From Myxococcota bacterium (lineage in GTDB: Bacteria; Myxococcota; Kuafuiibacteriia; Kuafuiibacteriales; Kuafuiibacteriaceae), in assembly GCA_036337945.1 (NCBI GenBank), contig JAYZDF010000062.1, positions 29,998-93,997 of the forward strand: DNA of 64,000 nt, read 5' to 3'. Position 1 is the stretch's first letter. Every line of letters begins with the position of its first letter. The position numbers were made by a program, and so were the translations under genes. Positions 10,133 to 22,159 of this stretch are shown here, piece by piece. The notes below the pieces were generated by a model. That model saw only the letters and a program-made list of their open reading frames with translations. It made no database searches and had not been told where the DNA came from.

Positions 10133-12007
10133 GTGTCGAAGTTCCGCCAACGACCTGCTCTGGTTATTTCCGTTATTGGTACCGTCACGCTGCTGGCTAT
10201 CGGGATTTGGCTCCTTACTTCTTTTTTGGCTCACTTTTCCTCAGTTCCTAATGACGGATACTTAGGAACAACAAAAACTACGACAATCAGCGAGACCGCC
10301 CCTCCCCTTCGCCTCGCAAACCAAAAAGAAGAGACACGTCTAAAAAGGGAACAAAGTGAGTCGGGCAGTCCCTTTTCAAACATTAGAGTTTCAGGTCGTG
10401 TCTACGATGCAGCAACGAGTCGCGGAATAGCGAATGCGATCGTAACAATCAAAGTTTTGGATAACGCTATTTTTCCGGGCGCCGATCAAGACGCGAGAAA
10501 ACTCACTGTAGAAACTGACTCCGCTGGTTATTACGATGCGAAAGGAATTCCGCCGGGCCTATTTGAATTCAGAGCAGAGGCGACTGGATATTTTCCCAAC
10601 ACAGTTCAAATACGAAAATATGACGTGATTGAAAACGATGAGGGCATCGACCTCGCCTTACGAGAATCAATCGTCGTAGAAGGCCTTGTTCAAAATGAAG
10701 CGATGCAACCGGTAGAAAACGCCAAAATTATTGCGAGCTCAACGATAGAGAAAAGATACATCACCGCAGCTGACCCGAACGCGAGAAGTGATCGATTAGG
10801 ACGCTTCATCATCGACCCTGTTTCCAAACAAACGAGACAATTATTTGCCTTTCATCCTGACTATGAACCAACACTCGTTTCTATTCCCGCAGGAAAATCC
10901 GCGGTAAAATCCATGAAAATTACCTTGAAGAAAGGACACGAGCTTTTCGGGAAGGTCATTGGAAACTCCGGCCCTTTAGTTAACGCTACAGTGGGCTTCG
11001 AGTTTTTGAGTACAGAAAAACAGTCACTGTATGTTCAAGGAATGGAAGACCAGTTGAGCACAAAAACAAATACACTCGGTGAATACCAGATCCATGCATC
11101 GACGAAGAAAACGCAAGGGCTGTTCGCTGTCGCAGAAGGCTATCAAAAGCAGAGAAAGAGAATAAAATTTAGTCAGGCAAAAGAGCAAATTGATTTTAAT
11201 CTGAAGCCCGCCAAAACAGCTTCGGGGCAAGTTGTCTTGCAAAATGGGAGGCCTGTCGTCGGTGCGAGGATAGGTTTTCGTTCAGCGGTGACCAATGAGA
11301 ACCAACAGCAAAACAAAAGCGATACTGGGATCGCCAGCGCTGTTGGAACAACAGATCGCAAAGGGAATTTTTCAGTGAGTGGGATCGGCGGAGAGCCACC
11401 GTATAATGTTTATATTCGTGCGCCGGGCGCGCCTTCCCATTTTGACCTGGCTGACGACCTCGATCGCCCTCTTCTCTTTACGATCGCATCTGGCTCGAGC
11501 ATCAGCGGTCGAATCGAAGCCGCAGATACCGGAGACGCGATTACCCGCTTCGCCTACTACGTATCAGGTTCATGTGGAGCCAGAGGAGGAGGTCAAGCAA
11601 GTAGCCCGTCCGGCAAGTTCGTCATTGATGGTCTCAAAGCAGGAACGTGTACGATACGCTTTCGAGCAGAAGGCTATGCGGAATCTAAAATTGAAAATAT
11701 TGAGCTCCTCGCAAATGAGGAAAGAAATGATTTGGTCATAGGTATGCAACCCGGCGCGAGCATTTTTGGCCAAGTACAAGGGACAAAACAGGACAAGAAA
11801 ATCTATGTCTTCGCGCAGCATTACGAAAACGGAAAAAAATCGAGATTGTATTCAGCGCGCGTTGAGACAGATGGCAGCTTTCAATTTGAAAATCTGCCGG
11901 AAGGCAATTTTCAGCTTTATTTACAAGGCTTTAGCAGTACTACTCCTGTGACTCTACGGGCCGGAGAAGCAAAATTAGACATTTCTCTCATCGCTTCAGA
12001 TGAGTAA
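10133..12007 (+). CDS. membrane-anchored or secreted protein with repeated carboxypeptidase-regulatory-like (CarbopepD_reg) beta-sandwich domains; GTG start
   Basis: N-terminal TM LVISVIGTVTLLAIGIWLL; repeated motifs RVSGRVYDAATSRGIANAIVTIKV, SGQVVLQNGRPVVGARIGF, ISGRIEAADTGDAI and IFGQVQG. Confidence 0.5.
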   Translation: MSKFRQRPALVISVIGTVTLLAIGIWLLTSFLAHFSSVPNDGYLGTTKTTTISETAPPLRLANQKEETRLKREQSESGSPFSNIRVSGRVYDAATSRGIANAIVTIKVLDNAIFPGADQDARKLTVETDSAGYYDAKGIPPGLFEFRAEATGYFPNTVQIRKYDVIENDEGIDLALRESIVVEGLVQNEAMQPVENAKIIASSTIEKRYITAADPNARSDRLGRFIIDPVSKQTRQLFAFHPDYEPTLVSIPAGKSAVKSMKITLKKGHELFGKVIGNSGPLVNATVGFEFLSTEKQSLYVQGMEDQLSTKTNTLGEYQIHASTKKTQGLFAVAEGYQKQRKRIKFSQAKEQIDFNLKPAKTASGQVVLQNGRPVVGARIGFRSAVTNENQQQNKSDTGIASAVGTTDRKGNFSVSGIGGEPPYNVYIRAPGAPSHFDLADDLDRPLLFTIASGSSISGRIEAADTGDAITRFAYYVSGSCGARGGGQASSPSGKFVIDGLKAGTCTIRFRAEGYAESKIENIELLANEERNDLVIGMQPGASIFGQVQGTKQDKKIYVFAQHYENGKKSRLYSARVETDGSFQFENLPEGNFQLYLQGFSSTTPVTLRAGEAKLDISLIASDE

Positions 12008-12194
12008 ATTAACTTAAACCGGTCACAATCCAAAATACTTTTAGTGGTCTATAACACCTCTGGTAAAGCCCCTCTGCCGTTATTATGTTGCGCCGCAGTG
12101 CTTCGGATACCATTGTTTGTCTCTCAGAATTGGAAAATTAAATATATTAAATAATTAATTTCCTAAAACTCATTTATATAATATTTTATTACCA

Positions 12195-12533
12195 ATGGGT
12201 CGGCCTCGTAAAAATAAAACAAACCAATTTGCAGTCGCTCTTGCAGAGGAAATTGAGCTGCAAAATGAGTCTAGAATTAATTTCAGAATTAGGCAGGAAA
12301 GAGTATTTTTTATGGAAAAAATTTTAAGTCTGACAGAATATATAGAGAAACTTGAAGGTCGAATTGAGAAGCTAGAAAGTCTAATTCAGAAACAACAACG
12401 AAGACCACTTGGGCGATGGGTGCCAGGTGGGCCAGGGCGGCCCCCAAAAGATGCCGCAGAAAGAATCGCCGCTTTCACGAAAAAAAGTGAAATGAACGGA
12501 ACGGAAGTGGAGAACAAAGATGTTGGGGGTTGA
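12195..12533 (+). CDS. small coiled-coil protein with N- and C-terminal AT-hook-like motifs
   Basis: MGRPRKNK at the N-terminus and PGGPGRPPKD near the C-terminus (GRP cores flanked by basic residues), with a central heptad region EYIEKLEGRIEKLESLIQKQQ. Overlaps the next gene by 14 nt. Confidence 0.5.
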   Translation: MGRPRKNKTNQFAVALAEEIELQNESRINFRIRQERVFFMEKILSLTEYIEKLEGRIEKLESLIQKQQRRPLGRWVPGGPGRPPKDAAERIAAFTKKSEMNGTEVENKDVGG

Positions 12534-13647
12534 TGAGTTTGAAGCGTTCGTATTCAAGGCTTTGGAAATCGAACCATCTGAAGAGCTACTTGATTCCTGG
12601 GCGATAAGCTATGAGAAACTTCAGTCTCGGCTCACCCGCAATCGCAAGGAGAGCCTTCAAAAGAATTCAAGCGCGGCGGGCGAGCAGGGCGCGGGCGACA
12701 TTGTCCGCGGTATCGTTCATGCGGGACGAACCTTTCGTATTGCTCAACGTATCTTGAGTATATATCCACCAGCGGCAGGACGAATGCTAGAGGTAGGGGC
12801 AGGCATAGGGCCCTTTGCGTTCGCTGCCCACAGTATGTTCGGCGAGCCGGTTACTATTCTAGAGAAAAATCGACGGATGCTCAGAAATGCTCTGAATCTC
12901 TTCGAAGCGGCTGAAATGGACGTCCCGAAGAGTATTCATGGAGATGCAACCCAGCCCATTACCTACCGTCAGTACTCTGCGGTATTCGCTCCTTTCGTGC
13001 TCAACGAGATTCTTACAAGAGTAGAAAGCGAGGACGTGGTCGGAGCGGGGCGGAAACAGGTTAAGAGTTGGTTGACGGCTTGTCGGAGAGGAGGTCGCCT
13101 TTACATTCTTGAGCCAGGAACCAAGGAAGCGGCTCAAAACCTCCAACGTCTACGGGAGACACTGAAGGACGAATTTCAAATCATTGGGCCGTGTACACAT
13201 GATTCTGAATGCCCAATGCTGAATGGAGAGAAAGATTGGTGTCACGTCACTTGGCGTATAGAGTCGGGGAACTGGGCTCAAAAGATCGCGGAAAGAGCGA
13301 AGCGCAGATTTCAAGACCTTCATTTCTCTTGGCTCATACTAGAGAACAGAAGGCCACAGCAAAGAGAGCCGGACAGCTTGAGAGTCATGGACGTCCGAAG
13401 AAATGATAAGAACAAACTTAGAGTGGTGACCTGCGGGACGAGCGGGCTTGAAACATTGGTCGTTCAAAAGAAGAACCGAGCAACCTACGAGGCATTCGAT
13501 GATTATCAGTCGGGAGATGAGCTACGGGTGACACTCAGTCAGCTAGAGAGGAAAGGGGACGGGTTCAGAGTGACGAGTGAAGAACAGATAAAGCATCGAC
13601 GGTCAGTGATGCAAAGCGTGGCCACTCTTTTGGACAACCAGACCTAG
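12520..13647 (+). CDS. class I SAM-dependent methyltransferase with C-terminal Cys/His cluster (Rsm22-like)
   Basis: Motif I MLEVGAGIGPFAF with acidic residue after beta-2 (VTILEKN); cluster CTHDSECPMLNGEKDWCHV as in Rsm22/METTL17-type methyltransferases. Confidence 0.5.
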   Translation: MLGVDEFEAFVFKALEIEPSEELLDSWAISYEKLQSRLTRNRKESLQKNSSAAGEQGAGDIVRGIVHAGRTFRIAQRILSIYPPAAGRMLEVGAGIGPFAFAAHSMFGEPVTILEKNRRMLRNALNLFEAAEMDVPKSIHGDATQPITYRQYSAVFAPFVLNEILTRVESEDVVGAGRKQVKSWLTACRRGGRLYILEPGTKEAAQNLQRLRETLKDEFQIIGPCTHDSECPMLNGEKDWCHVTWRIESGNWAQKIAERAKRRFQDLHFSWLILENRRPQQREPDSLRVMDVRRNDKNKLRVVTCGTSGLETLVVQKKNRATYEAFDDYQSGDELRVTLSQLERKGDGFRVTSEEQIKHRRSVMQSVATLLDNQT

Positions 13648-13659
13648 GCTAGAGACAAA

Positions 13660-13675
13660 TGTTCCACGTGAAACA
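13660..13675. promoter_or_regulatory. parS: parS centromere-like site, perfect TGTTCCACGTGAAACA
   Basis: Exact match to the Bacillus-type parS consensus TGTTNCACGTGAAACA; the 5' flank AGAGA is shared with the other copies. Confidence 0.8.
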
Positions 13676-13769
13676 TTCACAGATTGATTCACAGGCTTGC
13701 AAAGGAACGCAAAGCGGCTTGTCAGAAGAAAAATCTATCATTTTCGGATCCTTATAATGCAGAGAACAG

Positions 13770-13785
13770 TGTTCCACGTGAAACA
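13770..13785. promoter_or_regulatory. parS: parS centromere-like site, perfect TGTTCCACGTGAAACA
   Basis: Identical 16-mer exactly 110 bp from the first copy. Confidence 0.8.
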
Positions 13786-13794
13786 TTACGTGAG

Positions 13795-13803
13795 TTATCC
13801 ACA
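13795..13803 (+). promoter_or_regulatory. perfect DnaA-box 9-mer TTATCCACA
   Basis: Exact consensus 9-mer 10 bp downstream of parS copy 2, inside a CGTGAG...CTCACG inverted repeat. Confidence 0.35.
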
Positions 13804-13879
13804 GCTCACGAAAACGTGAGCGCTTCAAAGACATGCTTTCTTGGACATATCGAAAGCCTGATCGAAGACGAGAGAAACG

Positions 13880-13895
13880 TATTTCACGTGAAACA
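13880..13895. promoter_or_regulatory. parS: parS-like site TATTTCACGTGAAACA (one mismatch)
   Basis: Third copy exactly 110 bp from the second; the 5' flank AGAGAAACGT is conserved. Confidence 0.6.
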
Positions 13896-14046
13896 TAAAA
13901 GTAAGAACGCCTGGAGATAGGGCAGTGTAGGGTTTGAAAACGCCCGAACCGGATGATTTTAACCTCTTCAGAGACTTATCTAGCAACATGAATGATTAGA
14001 CCGATTCTGATGAATAAAGAACCGAATCTTAGAGTTCTTCTATCTT

Positions 14047-14064
14047 AATGAGAGATCTCTCATT
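14047..14064. repeat. 18-bp perfect palindrome AATGAGAGATCTCTCATT
   Basis: Read directly from the sequence; lies within a 9-bp inverted-repeat-bounded segment (AGTGTAGGG at 13924-13932 / CCCTACACT at 14068-14076). Confidence 0.5.
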
Positions 14065-14561
14065 CTGCCCTACACTTCTCGAGATTTGTAAAATTAGAGA
14101 TGATACATAAGAATAGTCTTTTTACGCTCCTATCCAGCGGGCCTGTCGTGAAGCGATGGGGAGTTTTTTTCTATAAGATTCCACTCAGAAGCAAATCCGT
14201 TTTATTACTCTAGTCGCAACGCTATTTCGGTAATCCAGAATCCGGCTGGGAAACAAAATCATTCCGTGGACTAAGGTACGAAGGTTTCTTCACAGGCTTA
14301 TACGACTTGAAATTTTTAGGCATAACGTTTTTCGAAGTCTTCTGCGAGTCGCGGGCTTACAACTTTGACCATCGAGAAAAGTTATGCTCGGCTTCGGAGG
14401 AAAGGAGAAAATAAACGACTCAATACTTTTTTGGAACCCAACACCTCCTCTAACAGAGCATCTTACCACTCATGATAAGCAAGATTCTCTACTCCGTCGC
14501 CAAACCGCGTTCATATTTCGTTTCGAAGTTTTTTTTTTAATGAAGAAAAGATGACTCGTGA

Positions 14562-14594
14562 ATAAGAACTAAACATCTGTTTAGTTCTTATTCT
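14562..14594. terminator. perfect 15-bp-stem hairpin (AATAAGAACTAAACA tc TGTTTAGTTCTTATT) spanning the stop codon of the HTH gene
   Basis: Perfect inverted repeat with a 2-nt loop; no clear U-tract, so terminator function is uncertain. Confidence 0.3.
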
Positions 14595-15162
14595 TGCCGA
14601 TCCCCAGTATCTGTTCGAGCTCATCTAATTCTCGATGAAGAATTTCTGATTCAGGATCGACCTGTCGCTGTTCTTCAATCAAAGCGGGAAGACGGGAACT
14701 GTTTGGGAGGGGCGCCTCCAGCAGCATCGGCGCATCTGTAGAGCTTTGCAACTTGTCTTGCAAGCTTTCTACCGTTTGTTCAAGTTTCTCGATGTGACTT
14801 TCGAGAGCTTTGAATTCATAGCTGCGGGTTTCAGAAATTTCGCGGATTGCGTCGAGGAAAACTTGACGTTCCTCATGAACCGCCTGAAGAAATGTGGAAC
14901 TCAGCCATTCTAAGTCTTCTCGGCTCAGTGAGCTCCCTTTTTGAGTTCCACGGGCTTTTTCAGCAGAATAATACGAACCTGATTCACGATGCAGCGCTTC
15001 TTCAACGTCAATCGCATCAATGCGAGTCTCCCAGCCAGAGTTTGTCTGCTGAAGACGGCGCCTTGGAAACTCACCTTCCTTAATTCGGCGCTGAAGGGTT
15101 CGTCGAGAAATCCCGAGTCGCTCAGCGACCTCTTGTAAACTGTATGATTCTTTCGTCGTCAT
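14581..15162 (-). CDS. excisionase/MerR-type HTH DNA-binding protein with long C-terminal coiled coil (RacA-like architecture)
   Basis: N-terminus YSLQEVAERLGISRRTLQRRIKEGEFP...W matches HTH_17/MerR-like domains; the remainder is heptad-rich (EKLEQTVESLQDKLQ, ELDELEQIL). Last gene of the jag operon. Confidence 0.6.
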   Translation of the reverse strand: MTTKESYSLQEVAERLGISRRTLQRRIKEGEFPRRRLQQTNSGWETRIDAIDVEEALHRESGSYYSAEKARGTQKGSSLSREDLEWLSSTFLQAVHEERQVFLDAIREISETRSYEFKALESHIEKLEQTVESLQDKLQSSTDAPMLLEAPLPNSSRLPALIEEQRQVDPESEILHRELDELEQILGIGKNKN

Positions 15163-16068: not shown

Positions 16069-16287
16069 TTACAGTTCGTTTGTGGTCGGAGCGTCCTTAC
16101 GATGGTCTAGCGCTGCCTCGACTCGTCCGCGCTCTCGCGATAAGAACTCGACAACGTCTTCGTCCGTCAGCTCAAGATCGCAAAGCGCCCCATTGTAAAT
16201 TTCGGAGCGCGATATACCCGCCCTCTCGAGCTGAACCTTTAAGCAAGCCGCCCCAAACAGGCGCTGTTCGCGTGTCCGAGGCGGCAT
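16069..16287 (-). CDS. small hypothetical protein (72 aa) between jag and the methyltransferase
   Basis: The ORF fills the gap between two co-oriented genes with tight spacing; no motif recognised. Confidence 0.35.
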   Translation of the reverse strand: MPPRTREQRLFGAACLKVQLERAGISRSEIYNGALCDLELTDEDVVEFLSRERGRVEAALDHRKDAPTTNEL

Positions 16288-16295
16288 ATTTTTCC

Positions 16296-17393
16296 TTATG
16301 AATTAGGCTGTGCTTCGGTCTCAGTAGAGTGTTCTGATTCAACAGATGCAGCTGCCGCTACTTCTTCTACCGTCGCTGAAGCCTCTTCTGTCGCTGGGGT
16401 CTCTTCAGCCGCTACCGCTTCTTCTTGATGAGAGTCACGACCGCGACCACCACGACGTCGACGACGGTTATTCTTCTTCGTGCGAAGCGCGTCTGGCACA
16501 ACGTGGATCCGGCGGAATAAACCTTCACCTTCGGACATCGTATCAGCGTCTTCTATCGTCATCACGGTCTGGTGAATGGCGCGACGGTCTGCAGCTGTCA
16601 TGGGTAGAATCGTAATGACTTTACCGAGAGAATTTGCTTTCTCTACAAGCTGCTTCGCGATTGCGACCATTTCTTCGTCAATATTGTCTGGGAGTGACTT
16701 TTGAGGACTTTTCGCTGCTTGCTTTCTGCGCTCTGCTGCTTCAGCTTTCCGCGTTGCGATTCGTTCGGCGACAGATTCTGCTTCAACTACGATATGCTTT
16801 CGATTGTCCGGAAATCGATTTACGATCTTGTTCAACAGGAATTGAAGTGAAGGTAGAGCAGGAGGACGCGTTGACCCGAGGAGATCAGCAACGGCTGTGC
16901 TGTCTTCGGCTTCATTTAGAACCACAACGATTTGTTCTTCTTCATCGCGAACCTCAACAACGACAGGCATACCAAGTTGATTACATAGCTCCTCAGTCAC
17001 CTCTTTTGTTTGCGCCGCTTTCTCGGGAGCTGGCCCGGTAATTCCTGGGACTCGAACTCGTTCTTCTGCCGCTGGTGCGCTTGCTTCACTGGTTTCAGTG
17101 GCGTCATCTGATTCAGCCGCTTCCGCTTTTTTAGGTGCTGGCTTTTTCCTAGAAGTAGCTTTCTTTGGCTTTTTTTCTTTCTCGCCAGAAAGGGTTTCTT
17201 TCTTGGCTTTAGTTTCTTTGGCCGCAACGCTTGCGGAAATGATCACCGGTCGAGCGCCCATACCAAATAAGCCGGCTGACCCTTTATCAACAATGCTAAA
17301 GGAGAGCTCTTCTTTAGTCACTCCAAAATCGGAACACGCAAGTTCAATCGCCTCACGTTCAGTTTCTGCTTCAAATTGTTTTTCTGTTGCCAC
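16296..17393 (-). CDS. jag: RNA-binding protein Jag/KhpB (Jag_N + KH + R3H) with long Lys/Glu-rich linker
   Basis: N-terminal Jag_N (EAIELACSDFGVTKEELSFSIVDKGSAGLFGMGARP), KH-like core (VVVEVRDEEEQIVVVLNEAEDSTAVADLLG) and R3H (RRAIHQTVMTIEDADTMSEGEGLFRRIHV). Confidence 0.8.
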   Translation of the reverse strand: MATEKQFEAETEREAIELACSDFGVTKEELSFSIVDKGSAGLFGMGARPVIISASVAAKETKAKKETLSGEKEKKPKKATSRKKPAPKKAEAAESDDATETSEASAPAAEERVRVPGITGPAPEKAAQTKEVTEELCNQLGMPVVVEVRDEEEQIVVVLNEAEDSTAVADLLGSTRPPALPSLQFLLNKIVNRFPDNRKHIVVEAESVAERIATRKAEAAERRKQAAKSPQKSLPDNIDEEMVAIAKQLVEKANSLGKVITILPMTAADRRAIHQTVMTIEDADTMSEGEGLFRRIHVVPDALRTKKNNRRRRRGGRGRDSHQEEAVAAEETPATEEASATVEEVAAAASVESEHSTETEAQPNS

Positions 17394-17654: not shown

Positions 17655-19358
17655 TTAGGAAGACAGCGCGGCAGCGGCCGGGGGAGTACCAGCATCTTTG
17701 TTGATGAAGTGCTGCTGGACGATGGTCAGGACGGTGTTTACAAAAATGTAAAAGCACAGTCCGGCCGGTAAGGCGATCATCATGGCTCCGAACATGATCG
17801 GCATGAAATACATCATCATTTTCTGTTGCGCCGCATCCATAGTGGTAGGAGTCATCTTTTGCTGAAGGAACATGACAACCACCAAAATAGCGGGAAGAAT
17901 CCAGTAGGGGTCTCGAGAGGTAAGGTCTGGAATCCATAGAAACGACTCCTGGTACAGGTCAATCGATACCCAGAGAGCCCGGTATAGGGCAAACCAGATA
18001 GGCATCTGAATGAGCATCGGTACGCAGCCACTGGCTGGGCTTACATTATGATCCCGATACAATTTCATCATTTCTTCGCTCTGGCGCTGTCGATCGTCCG
18101 GAAACTTTTCCTTGAGAGCGTCGATCTGAGGCTTCAACTTCGACATCGCCCGCATCGAACGACCGCTGCGTTGGTTGAGCGGAAAGAGTGCAAGCTTCAC
18201 CAAAACGGTTAGGCCAAGGATAGCGATCCCCCAAGAACCACTCAGTCCATAGATAAGAGCCAAAATAGCGAGTAGCCCCTCACACAAAATCGCCAAATTG
18301 AGACCCATGATGGTGTAATCCACCGCAGATTCGAGCTGAGCTTCACTTCGAGTCAAAAGCTTCGGTTTTTTCACACCGAGATACGCGGTGAATTTATGTC
18401 GCTTCTCCTCGCCTGGCCGCAAGGTGCTTTCCGCCATCACTAATGCCGCGCGGGCTTGCTGGCCATTCGCAGTCAAACGGCACTCTGCGGGATCATCATC
18501 ACGATGAATAATCGCAGATAGAAAATACTGACGATCCATCCCGACCCACTTCACATTTTCTGAAAACTTCTCAGATTCGCTGACCAATTCTTTTTGGGCT
18601 TCTCGCTCGACAGAGCCATCAGTGAAGCACGCTCCGTTGAGATGATCGGGAGGAGGCATAAACATCATTCCGCCTTCTTCCATCACTTCGGTCAGTTTGG
18701 AGGAGGTTGAAATCTCCATCACGTGTCGCTGAGGTTGATCGCTATTGTTGCGCACTGTAACGGCCATTTCTATTTCGAACGAATCAGGAGAGATATCGTA
18801 GATCCGTTCAACCTCGATCCCTTCATCCGTCTTATATGAATAGATCACCTGGTTTTCGCGAGGGCGACGAACCTCGTAGACTGGTCGAAGAGGAAACCGG
18901 AAAGTCGTTCCTTCTAAAAATTGAATTCCAGCCATTTGATTTCTTAGATCCGGGGCATCCAAGTTCGGTTGCGCTAGTCGAATCGGATCTTCGGTTGGCT
19001 GATTGTCCGCATCTCGCTCCTTAAACGAAGGGAGCTCGAACAATTGAATTCCACCGCCTACATTCGTCAGCTGTAGCGAGTAAGGTATTTTTTCATCCCC
19101 CGAATCTACAGAACCCGAAAATTTTTCAATCGACTCAGGAATAACTTTTCGCGGCGCTTTCGCAACCGTTGTAGTCGTCACCTCGCCTGCCATTGTGGCG
19201 GTCGTTGCTGTTTGAACATTTTCAGATTTCTCCGTCGTAGCCACAGAAGCGTTTTTCTTCGGTGGCTTTTGGGGAAAGAGATATGTCCAAGTCGTTAGGA
19301 CGATCACCGATAGTATCGTCGCACGTAGAATCCGTTGATTGTTCTCTGATTCTTCCAT
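17655..19358 (-). CDS. yidC: membrane protein insertase YidC
   Basis: 567 aa; N-terminal TM, large periplasmic domain and conserved C-terminal five-TM core (PMLIQMPIWFALY, MMYFMPIMFGAMM). Confidence 0.9.
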   Translation of the reverse strand: MEESENNQRILRATILSVIVLTTWTYLFPQKPPKKNASVATTEKSENVQTATTATMAGEVTTTTVAKAPRKVIPESIEKFSGSVDSGDEKIPYSLQLTNVGGGIQLFELPSFKERDADNQPTEDPIRLAQPNLDAPDLRNQMAGIQFLEGTTFRFPLRPVYEVRRPRENQVIYSYKTDEGIEVERIYDISPDSFEIEMAVTVRNNSDQPQRHVMEISTSSKLTEVMEEGGMMFMPPPDHLNGACFTDGSVEREAQKELVSESEKFSENVKWVGMDRQYFLSAIIHRDDDPAECRLTANGQQARAALVMAESTLRPGEEKRHKFTAYLGVKKPKLLTRSEAQLESAVDYTIMGLNLAILCEGLLAILALIYGLSGSWGIAILGLTVLVKLALFPLNQRSGRSMRAMSKLKPQIDALKEKFPDDRQRQSEEMMKLYRDHNVSPASGCVPMLIQMPIWFALYRALWVSIDLYQESFLWIPDLTSRDPYWILPAILVVVMFLQQKMTPTTMDAAQQKMMMYFMPIMFGAMMIALPAGLCFYIFVNTVLTIVQQHFINKDAGTPPAAAALSS

Positions 19359-19641: not shown

Positions 19642-20070
19642 TTACGTTGTGCCTTTACGTTGCTTTTGGACTCGTTGCTCGGCCTTCAGGATCGCAGGGA
19701 TCAGATCGACTGCAACATCATCCAAGCCGTTCAATGCGCGCTGAGACGCGTGTGGCTTGGCTATCACTACAAAGTCAACTGTTGATAAGTGATGCTGCAA
19801 TCTGCGAAAACATTCTCGTAACATTCTACGAACACGGCTTCTTATCACAGCATTTCCAACTCGTTTGCTTACTACGCAACCAAGACGCGGTCTTGTTTGT
19901 TTTTCGGAAATAAACGCAACGACGGTAAAGCAGCCGGTGTGAACGCGAAGGCCTTTTTTTTGTATCGTTAGAAATTCGCGCCGTTGGCGAACTCGAGCCG
20001 CTTTTGGAAAAGCACCACTCTTAGACAATAGAGCGAGGGTCGACTTAGGAGCGTGATCTGATGGCGTCAT
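19642..20070 (-). CDS. rnpA: ribonuclease P protein component (true start likely internal to the ORF)
   Basis: FPKAARVRQRREFLTIQKKG...GCVVSKRVGNAVIRSRVRRMLRE resembles the RnpA basic RNR motif; position between rpmH and yidD. Confidence 0.8.
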   Translation of the reverse strand: MTPSDHAPKSTLALLSKSGAFPKAARVRQRREFLTIQKKGLRVHTGCFTVVAFISEKQTRPRLGCVVSKRVGNAVIRSRVRRMLRECFRRLQHHLSTVDFVVIAKPHASQRALNGLDDVAVDLIPAILKAEQRVQKQRKGTT

Positions 20071-21892: not shown

Positions 21893-22159
21893 AGCCACAG
21901 AGTATTGAAGAGAATTAACCACATGATGTTGTGTGTAACAGCCAAAAGAGCGTCTATAACTTGTGTACAGAGTTGTGATATGCGTGTGGAAAAGAAACGT
22001 GACGAGTTGTACACAATTTATCCAACTTTAATTCACAGTGAAGGGTTGTCTATGATCGAGAATCAAAACAAGGATTTACAAAAGTTATCCACAATTCACA
22101 GCCCCTACTACTACGATCAGTTTATTTAAAATACAGAACAGACTAGGACACAGAAAAAT
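21893..22159. other. oriC: putative oriC: dnaA-dnaN spacer with DnaA boxes and an AT-rich unwinding region
   Basis: Perfect TTATCCACA at 22083-22091; one- or two-mismatch boxes TTAACCACA, TGTGGAAAA and TTATCCAAC; AATTCACAG repeated twice; inverted repeat TTGTGTACA...TGTACACAA; AT-rich tract just upstream of dnaN. Confidence 0.6.

Follow-up and report, generated by a model that had tools for sequence, protein, structure and literature searches.

What does a small DNA-binding protein do when its gene closes the jag operon, a short distance from an array of parS sites, in an uncultured marine member of the Myxococcota? The question is raised by a 64,000-nucleotide stretch of contig JAYZDF010000062.1 (positions 29,998 to 93,997; assembly GCA_036337945.1, family Kuafuiibacteriaceae), referred to below as the window. 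Here a 193-aa open reading frame (ORF) with an N-terminal helix-turn-helix (HTH) lies on the minus strand (MEE2902525.1, labelled 'helix-turn-helix domain-containing protein' by NCBI). A first-pass annotation, made from the letters of the window, had likened its product to RacA of Bacillus and had pointed to a perfect hairpin at the gene end. The molecular description reached below, of a conserved family with a winged HTH (wHTH), a coiled coil, linkers, an acidic C-terminal helix and a set position in the jag operon, is one that we hold with high confidence. As to function, we favour a DNA-to-partner adaptor or organiser that would be oligomeric, would act on origin-proximal DNA and would be RacA-like in design, and we put the probability of this reading at about 0.38.

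A winged-helix protein family in the Myxococcota

The ORF is present where it had been annotated, with the N-terminal HTH sequence that had been quoted for it, and two domain models exceed their cutoffs: HTH_17 (Pfam PF12728; E = 2.5e-9, 37.7 bits against a cutoff of 27, residues 7-57) and the excisionase-type model TIGR01764, which at 28.9 bits is barely above its cutoff of 28.8. The Pfam models MerR (PF00376; 17.1 against 28.2 bits) and MerR_1 (PF13411; 16.1 against 21.6 bits) remained below threshold. Pairwise comparison with four orthologues at 75-91% identity gave dN/dS values of 0.05-0.12, which mark a genuine gene under strong purifying selection; synonymous sites were near saturation in the more distant of the four.

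Relatives were sought at two depths. While a word-indexed search recovered only four close homologues, all from marine metagenomes, an exhaustive profile search of 1.84 billion representatives returned 69 proteins at E≤1e-3 and 27 at E≤1e-10, most of them 170-250 aa long and aligned end to end. The family comprises ~30-70 sequence clusters, from Myxococcota metagenome assemblies only. The few named members carry the label 'helix-turn-helix domain-containing protein' in metagenome-assembled genomes (MAGs) of Myxococcales or Myxococcota, and no cultured organism was represented among the named matches. A peptide-pattern scan of GTDB genomes gave a single match (L003), an unrelated HTH. Judged by these searches, the family is previously undescribed and Myxococcota-restricted. 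HTH_17 was detected in 32 of 33 members and is the sole consistent Pfam match, the helical part having none.

In the family alignment (A3), conservation is concentrated in three blocks, and the low-complexity linkers between them differ in length by tens of residues. Block 1 is the wHTH, in which the recognition helix is nearly invariant ((S/T)(K/R)RTLQRRI.EG.FP; SRRTLQRRIKEG in the window protein); such conservation implies one putative DNA target common to the family. Block 2 is a helix with the consensus DLE.LRd..L..VREERe.FL..vR.al..RD.E, and block 3, at the C-terminus (vDVd.LLRELgELEalLG), is retained in nearly all members.

An AlphaFold model of the monomer, built on five close sequences (mean pLDDT 73.7, pTM 0.32), places a wHTH at about aa 1-65 (pLDDT ~90), made up of a strand (6-8), two helices (9-16 and 20-28), a beta-hairpin wing (35-49) and a further helix (50-65). 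A disordered linker (about aa 64-80; modelled disorder 64-76) leads to a single long helix of 63 residues (aa 81-143, pLDDT ~90), and a second disordered segment (about aa 143-168) to a short C-terminal helix (about aa 169-187; modelled helix 170-186). A canonical a/d heptad pattern was significant at aa 113-141 only, where its strength was reached in 0 of 2,000 shuffles; in its first half the long helix, though amphipathic, is not clearly heptad. The protein had been described as coiled coil throughout its non-HTH part, which holds for aa 113-141 and overstates the rest, as only ~30 to 60 of these 130 residues qualify and disorder is found elsewhere. Because the second half of the helix forms a canonical coiled coil, the protein is inferred to be a dimer or higher oligomer. 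Net charge is +1 for the wHTH, -8 for the long helix and -4 for the C-terminal 25 residues. The C-terminal helix itself (SEILHRELDELEQILGIG; mean hydrophobicity 0.08) is amphipathic yet acidic, with a net charge of -4 in the window protein and the family consensus alike.

Structural comparison with Foldseek matched the model to the RacA DNA-binding domain, to Xis, BldC and RdfS, and to MerR regulators bound to DNA, the last including proteins that pair an HTH with a long helix (HiNmlR, BmrR, MtaN and SoxR). The RacA-DNA complex 5i44 was among the best matches (60 columns, 25% identity, TM 0.54 normalised to the target, E = 8e-3), while mycobacteriophage Pukovnik Xis and BldC superposed better (TM 0.6-0.7 with the same normalisation). 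The full-length family profile retrieved only generic coiled-coil noise from PDB (spike HR1, occludin, keratin).

Position in the jag operon and next to parS

In the window, the minus-strand genes run in the order rpmH, rnpA, yidD, yidC, jag, a 72-aa ORF, a methyltransferase gene and the 193-aa ORF. The gaps between the last four are 8, 3 and 3 bp; these genes therefore form one tightly packed unit, and the HTH gene is indeed the last of the jag operon at this locus, as first proposed. It is the distal gene of the rpmH-rnpA-yidC-jag operon, lies ~5-7 kb from dnaA/dnaN and is followed by ~930 bp without a conserved ORF. The distance from its end to the parS triplet, given earlier as 700 bp, measures 686 bp to the nearest site (13880-13895).

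To compare loci, we used the nine distinct ones with enough flank: L001/L002 (two assemblies of one orthologue, 85% identity), L007-L010 and L011-L014. These span 27-85% identity and 46-66% GC, with L007, L008, L009 and L010 at 29-32% identity (BLASTP) and 61-66% GC. At 9/9 the HTH gene lies downstream of jag in an rpmH-rnpA-(yidD)-yidC-jag operon, which is divergent from dnaA-dnaN-recF wherever the flank extends that far, and in all loci scanned parS-like sites occur 0.5-5 kb downstream of the HTH gene. Its position is kept despite gain or loss of methyltransferase and glycosylase genes. The methyltransferase occurs only in the window clade, L009 and L012, and is absent in L007, L008, L010, L011, L013 and L014. 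The HTH gene is not always the last of the operon: in L011, L013 and L014 a 3-methyladenine DNA glycosylase gene (Pur_DNA_glyco) follows it in the same direction.

The 72-aa ORF was found directly upstream of the HTH gene, or upstream of the inserted methyltransferase, in all loci checked (including L008, where it is uncalled), and at loci without the methyltransferase it runs up to or into the HTH gene; at L013 the 221-bp gap after jag holds no called gene and lay outside this check. Since the methyltransferase and glycosylase are variable, the constant unit consists of jag, the 72-aa gene and the HTH gene. The 72-aa product carries the motif RLFGAAC..V.LER.G...IY.G.L.DL.L and is predicted to form a confident three-helix bundle, for which no Pfam, PHROG or PDB fold match was obtained (best structural E = 2.6). 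It is a candidate partner of the HTH protein.

This context bears on two alternatives. The protein could be an RNA-binding or ribosome-associated adaptor that works with the RNase P protein, YidC, Jag/KhpB and the methyltransferase, which would agree with the tight translational coupling to jag, the 72-aa protein and, in some genomes, the methyltransferase, and with the Rsm22-like methyltransferase encoded convergently downstream. The operon methyltransferase is missing from most loci, however, and all N-terminal structural neighbours are wHTH modules that bind double-stranded DNA, so that we consider this role improbable. Alternatively, the protein might be an excisionase, a recombination directionality factor or another mobile-element remnant. 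HTH_17/TIGR01764, its actual N-terminal domain assignment, is shared with Pukovnik Xis, RdfS, BldC and AlpA; TIGR01764 is at threshold, Xis and RdfS are fold matches, and excisionase families are the best viral matches in PHROG (phrog_66, E = 1.5e-9; phrog_1840, E = 9e-7). Yet proteins of this group are 50-80-residue single domains, with neither a coiled coil nor a C-terminal motif, and excisionases lack the 130-residue helical extension. Many of the group are also linked to an integrase, whereas no integrase or mobile-element gene was annotated among the called neighbours at any locus; together with strong purifying selection and the fixed place in a core housekeeping operon at 9/9 loci of widely differing GC, this leads us to reject a mobile-element origin on context and to give it almost no weight.

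The parS array itself shows a recurrent arrangement. Each parS of the triplet is preceded by DnaA-box-like words, two of which (TGTGAATCA and TGTGAAT) adjoin a parS with no gap, and the array includes a perfect DnaA box (TTATCCACA, 13795-13803), one of two in the 64 kb, the other being at 22085 in the dnaA-dnaN spacer. The same juxtaposition recurs in close relatives (L001 11392-11631, L004 1950-2198, L005 2425-2661) and in GC-rich distant ones (L008 ~12080, L009 ~11840, L010 ~11240). DnaA binding at the Caulobacter centromere offers a precedent, and the array may be a composite DnaA/ParB element. The dnaA-dnaN spacer (21893-22159), with DnaA boxes at 21915, 21985 and 22085 (one perfect, two with one mismatch), is a more conventional oriC candidate, ~6.7 kb from the HTH gene; GC skew across the window was uninformative on the origin. 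Between the parS array and the HTH gene lies a non-coding spacer (13900-14560) of ~640 bp, or 690-970 bp in close relatives. An alignment of this spacer across four relatives showed poor conservation (55% column identity) and no evidence of a conserved small RNA or motif. The spacer also contains a terminator-like site on the plus strand (14142-14169), with no obvious gene upstream.

A candidate DNA-to-partner adaptor

In RacA, an N-terminal wHTH is followed by a disordered region and then by a coiled coil, through which the protein oligomerises and contacts DivIVA; its DNA targets are GC-rich palindromes clustered near the origin (ram, TGACGCCGGCGTCA), its constructs cover residues 1-184, and racA is developmentally regulated (PMC4914108). 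The Bacillus subtilis protein (PDB 5I41/5I44) and the window protein are similar in size and share the succession of MerR-type wHTH, disordered linker and coiled coil; RacA acts on origin-proximal DNA, and the HTH gene lies near the origin. To this extent the proposed RacA domain plan is sustained by the AlphaFold model, the heptad test and the Foldseek match to 5i44, with the coiled-coil portion smaller than had been stated. Profile searches, in contrast, did not place the protein in the RacA family. The NCBIfam model PRK13182 (NF009648) scored 13.4 bits against a cutoff of 170 (E = 0.06), with residues 11-36 alone aligned, and membership was rejected; phmmer of the 193-aa protein against PDB did not list RacA at E≤10, and the N-terminal family profile reached RacA 5i41_B at E = 1.2 (12.2 bits, 18 residues). 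The two further differ in phylum (Firmicutes versus Myxococcota) and in setting (developmental regulation of RacA versus a housekeeping operon here), and the conserved acidic C-terminal helix and 72-aa neighbour are features of the present family. Clustered GC-rich palindromes of the ram kind were not identified, and near the HTH gene no palindrome besides parS was noticed to recur. We infer, from architecture, that the protein may work like RacA; it is not a family member.

Similar architectures occur in other DNA-anchoring and partition proteins. RocS and RicO act in origin positioning and segregation; in each, an N-terminal MerR-type wHTH and a central coiled coil for multimerisation are joined by a short amphipathic helix at the C-terminus, which binds the membrane (PMC11500499; bioRxiv 10.64898/2026.03.06.710092). 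The three-part plan of RocS (Streptococcus pneumoniae) and RicO (Staphylococcus aureus), compared by description only, is that of the window protein, except that their C-terminal helix binds membranes while the acidic one here is more likely to dock onto protein. An acidic amphipathic helix is unsuited to binding anionic membranes. No RocS or RicO entry was among the matches of the PDB sequence and profile searches, in which their own sequences were not compared. The RicO study surveyed that family in Firmicutes only and called its distribution outside this phylum an open question (bioRxiv 10.64898/2026.03.06.710092). Par of the staphylococcal plasmid pSK1 (PDB 8CSH), a single-protein partition factor, likewise has a MerR-type wHTH and a coiled coil, followed by a disordered C-terminus (PMC11500499); it differs in being plasmid-borne and in binding repeats that adjoin its own gene, and it was not among the PDB matches of the N-terminal family profile. 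Lastly, ZapT, a protein of MerR type that connects the Caulobacter terminus with the Z ring, demonstrates that such a protein can tie a chromosome domain to a cellular structure (PMC7188993).

The same domain evidence also fits an ordinary site-specific transcription factor, that is, an HTH_17/MerR-like coiled-coil dimer that controls a gene set unconnected with chromosome organisation and owes its place in the jag operon to synteny. HTH_17 is the sole family assignment, the NCBI label names nothing beyond an HTH, the fold matches include MerR regulators that combine an HTH with a long helix, and linkage is weak functional evidence where the entire neighbourhood is syntenic. Like classical MerR regulators, the protein has an HTH and then a long dimerisation helix; unlike them, it joins the two by a variable flexible linker in place of a rigid junction and has no effector-binding domain. 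Such a linker is incompatible with the classical MerR mechanism of DNA distortion, and classical membership does not hold, with the MerR and MerR_1 models below threshold, the linker disordered and no further domain present. Moreover, the gene sits in a housekeeping operon, joined by 3-bp gaps or overlaps, with no divergent target promoter beside it, and the conserved docking-type C-terminal helix and constant 72-aa neighbour suggest a role in protein-protein contacts. A transcription factor is, on this balance, doubtful in its own right and nearly as likely as the adaptor. Were the protein a plain regulator, the result would be a routine annotation of a lineage-specific HTH protein.

For the DNA-to-partner adaptor, the following mechanism can be proposed. 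The wHTH would bind double-stranded DNA, and multimerisation through the coiled coil would bring two or more flexibly tethered wHTH modules onto it. As the linker is of low complexity and varies by tens of residues (compare RacA, PMC4914108), its design would be that of a tether, unlike the rigid coupling of an allosteric MerR-type switch. Docking onto a protein partner would fall to the acidic C-terminal helix, possibly aided by the 72-aa protein, such that the HTH protein would bridge or organise DNA, most plausibly near the origin, in the manner of RacA, RocS, RicO and pSK1 Par. The hairpin over the stop codon would mark the 3' end of the operon transcript.

Purifying selection, the DNA-binding domain, the heptad pattern, the variable linker and the conserved acidic C-terminal helix, all described above, speak for the adaptor. 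In addition, analogues of like architecture anchor or partition DNA (PMC4914108, PMC11500499, bioRxiv 10.64898/2026.03.06.710092, PMC7188993), and the operon position near the origin is invariant, this being the sole support for a role at the origin or pole and lying inside a syntenic region. An undescribed family with RacA-like architecture and an invariant origin-proximal position is therefore a reasonable candidate organiser, and the protein is a candidate chromosome-organising adaptor outside Firmicutes.

Several observations weigh against this reading. The whole ~20-kb origin region is syntenic in the clade, with the Rsm22-like gene and those for a 147-aa protein, a Ser/Thr kinase, RNase HII and UvrA conserved too, so that the conserved position may reflect ancestry and gives no proof of a functional tie to the origin. 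A sequence relationship to RacA is absent from both the NCBIfam model and the PDB profile search, the pTM of the model is low and every Foldseek E-value exceeds 1e-3. The acidic C-terminal helix does not correspond to the membrane-targeting helix of RocS and RicO. Finally, no repeated candidate binding motif was found, and the hairpin palindrome occurs once in the 64 kb.

A more specific version, which we regard as unlikely, is that of a convergent organiser of the origin domain, of RacA/RocS/RicO type, in a marine Myxococcota clade. It would be the first outside Firmicutes, would bind DNA near the origin by its wHTH and would tether the parS/DnaA-box region to a cellular scaffold through the coiled coil, the acidic C-terminal helix and the co-transcribed 72-aa protein. 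If true, ParABS-based origin positioning would gain a second layer, and a concrete candidate for organising the origin would be at hand in a phylum with an unusual subpolar ParABS/bactofilin arrangement. The combination of a MerR-type wHTH with a coiled coil, seen in RacA, RocS, RicO, pSK1 Par and ZapT, is emerging as a recurrent means of fastening a chromosome region to a landmark, and a sequence-unrelated family of the same design, fixed near the origin in the jag operon of one Myxococcota lineage and accompanied by a small conserved partner, would show an independent origin of this solution.

The hairpin over the stop codon and neighbouring features

The HTH gene ends within a perfect hairpin, first reported as a 15-bp stem at 14562-14594. 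The structure and its 2-nt loop are real, and the stem measures 16 bp, at 14560-14593. The right arm (plus strand) takes in the stop codon (14581-14583) and the last three to four codons, in keeping with the original description. Among the perfect inverted repeats of the window it is the longest, far beyond what chance would give, and it folds at -17.5 kcal/mol alone (z = -4.7 against shuffles in a 101-nt context), although only 4 of its 16 pairs are G-C, the stem being A/U-rich. When the upper 10 bp only are paired, the flanks AAGAAUAA and UUAUUC take the A-tract/U-tract form of a bidirectional terminator.

Conservation of the hairpin is partial. A 9-bp core (AACTAAACA-NN-TGTTTAGTT) is present in 3 of 5 close relatives and is identical in L004 and L005, genomes between which synonymous sites are saturated. 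In L004 (91% protein identity) the stem has 11 bp (-9.2 kcal/mol) and is followed by UUUUUUCU; in L005 (80%) it has 9 bp (-7.9 kcal/mol). Probably the hairpin belongs to the 3' end of the transcript, where it would serve as a weak terminator or as a barrier to exonucleases, and some close relatives have kept it; ~640 bp of poorly conserved non-coding DNA follow it in the window. Against this, it is destroyed in L001 (85%) and L006 (75%) and absent from GC-rich relatives, the terminator scan did not call it, there being no T-run after the full stem, and the genome shows hardly any excess of canonical terminators (33 versus 24±5 in shuffles). The hairpin does not characterise the family as a whole. 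An Rfam scan of 12-17 kb gave one sub-threshold match to the hairpin (Plastid-psbJ-4, 28.6 against 55.2 bits), which we treated as a generic stem-loop.

Two roles had been suggested for the hairpin at the outset, stabilisation of the mRNA 3' end and a binding site. The former is plausible; for the latter there is no sign of a repeated site, the palindrome being single-copy and not conserved in the family. The 34-nt palindrome could still be a double-stranded DNA operator, for example for the HTH protein itself, in place of an RNA hairpin. A perfect 16-bp inverted repeat is of a size bound by dimeric wHTH proteins, and the core is conserved in L004 and L005 despite saturated synonymous sites. 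Such an operator is nevertheless very improbable: one copy exists in the 64 kb even at 3 mismatches, with none in any locus beyond the orthologous position; the palindrome lies at the 3' end of a gene and not at a promoter, with half of it under coding constraint; and L001 and L006 have lost it and distant loci lack it, though the recognition helix is conserved.

Table 1 Features of the HTH gene neighbourhood (window coordinates unless a locus is named).
Feature	Position	Strand	Evidence and remarks
Three parS sites, 110-bp spacing	13660, 13770, 13880 (span 13660..13895)		Third with one mismatch; DnaA-box-like words interleaved
Perfect hairpin/palindrome	14560..14593	minus	Arms 14560-14575 and 14578-14593; 16-bp stem, 2-nt loop, 100% complementarity
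HTH coiled-coil protein gene, 193 aa	14581..15162	minus	ORF; HTH_17, TIGR01764; AlphaFold; dN/dS; family alignment A3 (three conserved blocks)
SAM-dependent methyltransferase, class I, 299 aa	15166..16065	minus	Methyltransf_11, E = 6e-23; 3 bp upstream of HTH gene
72-aa three-helix protein gene	16069..16287	minus	Conserved ORF; AlphaFold pLDDT 83.5
jag (Jag_N + R3H)	16296..17393	minus	Domain matches; first gene of packed jag/72-aa/methyltransferase/HTH block
yidC	17655-19358	minus	
rnpA	19642-20070	minus	
3-methyladenine DNA glycosylase gene (Pur_DNA_glyco)	L011 6705-7295, L013 4353-4970, L014 8576-9181		After HTH gene, overlap or short gap

Two further genes of the neighbourhood deserve mention. 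The Rsm22-like methyltransferase gene, convergent downstream (12520-13647), is intact in the window (375 aa; Rsm22, E = 3e-19), whereas in L001, at 85% identity, it is split into several short ORFs (11600-12800), which suggests a pseudogene or an assembly error. A 112-aa protein is encoded on the plus strand at 12195-12533. It was considered as a paralogue or partner of the HTH protein and rejected (BLASTP E = 5e-4 in a single comparison; hhalign probability 2.4%). Its coiled coil is flanked by the AT-hook-like motifs GRPRK and PGRPPK, it is conserved in the GC-rich L009 (107 codons), a 113-aa gene occupies the equivalent position in L001, and it may be a small nucleoid-associated protein.

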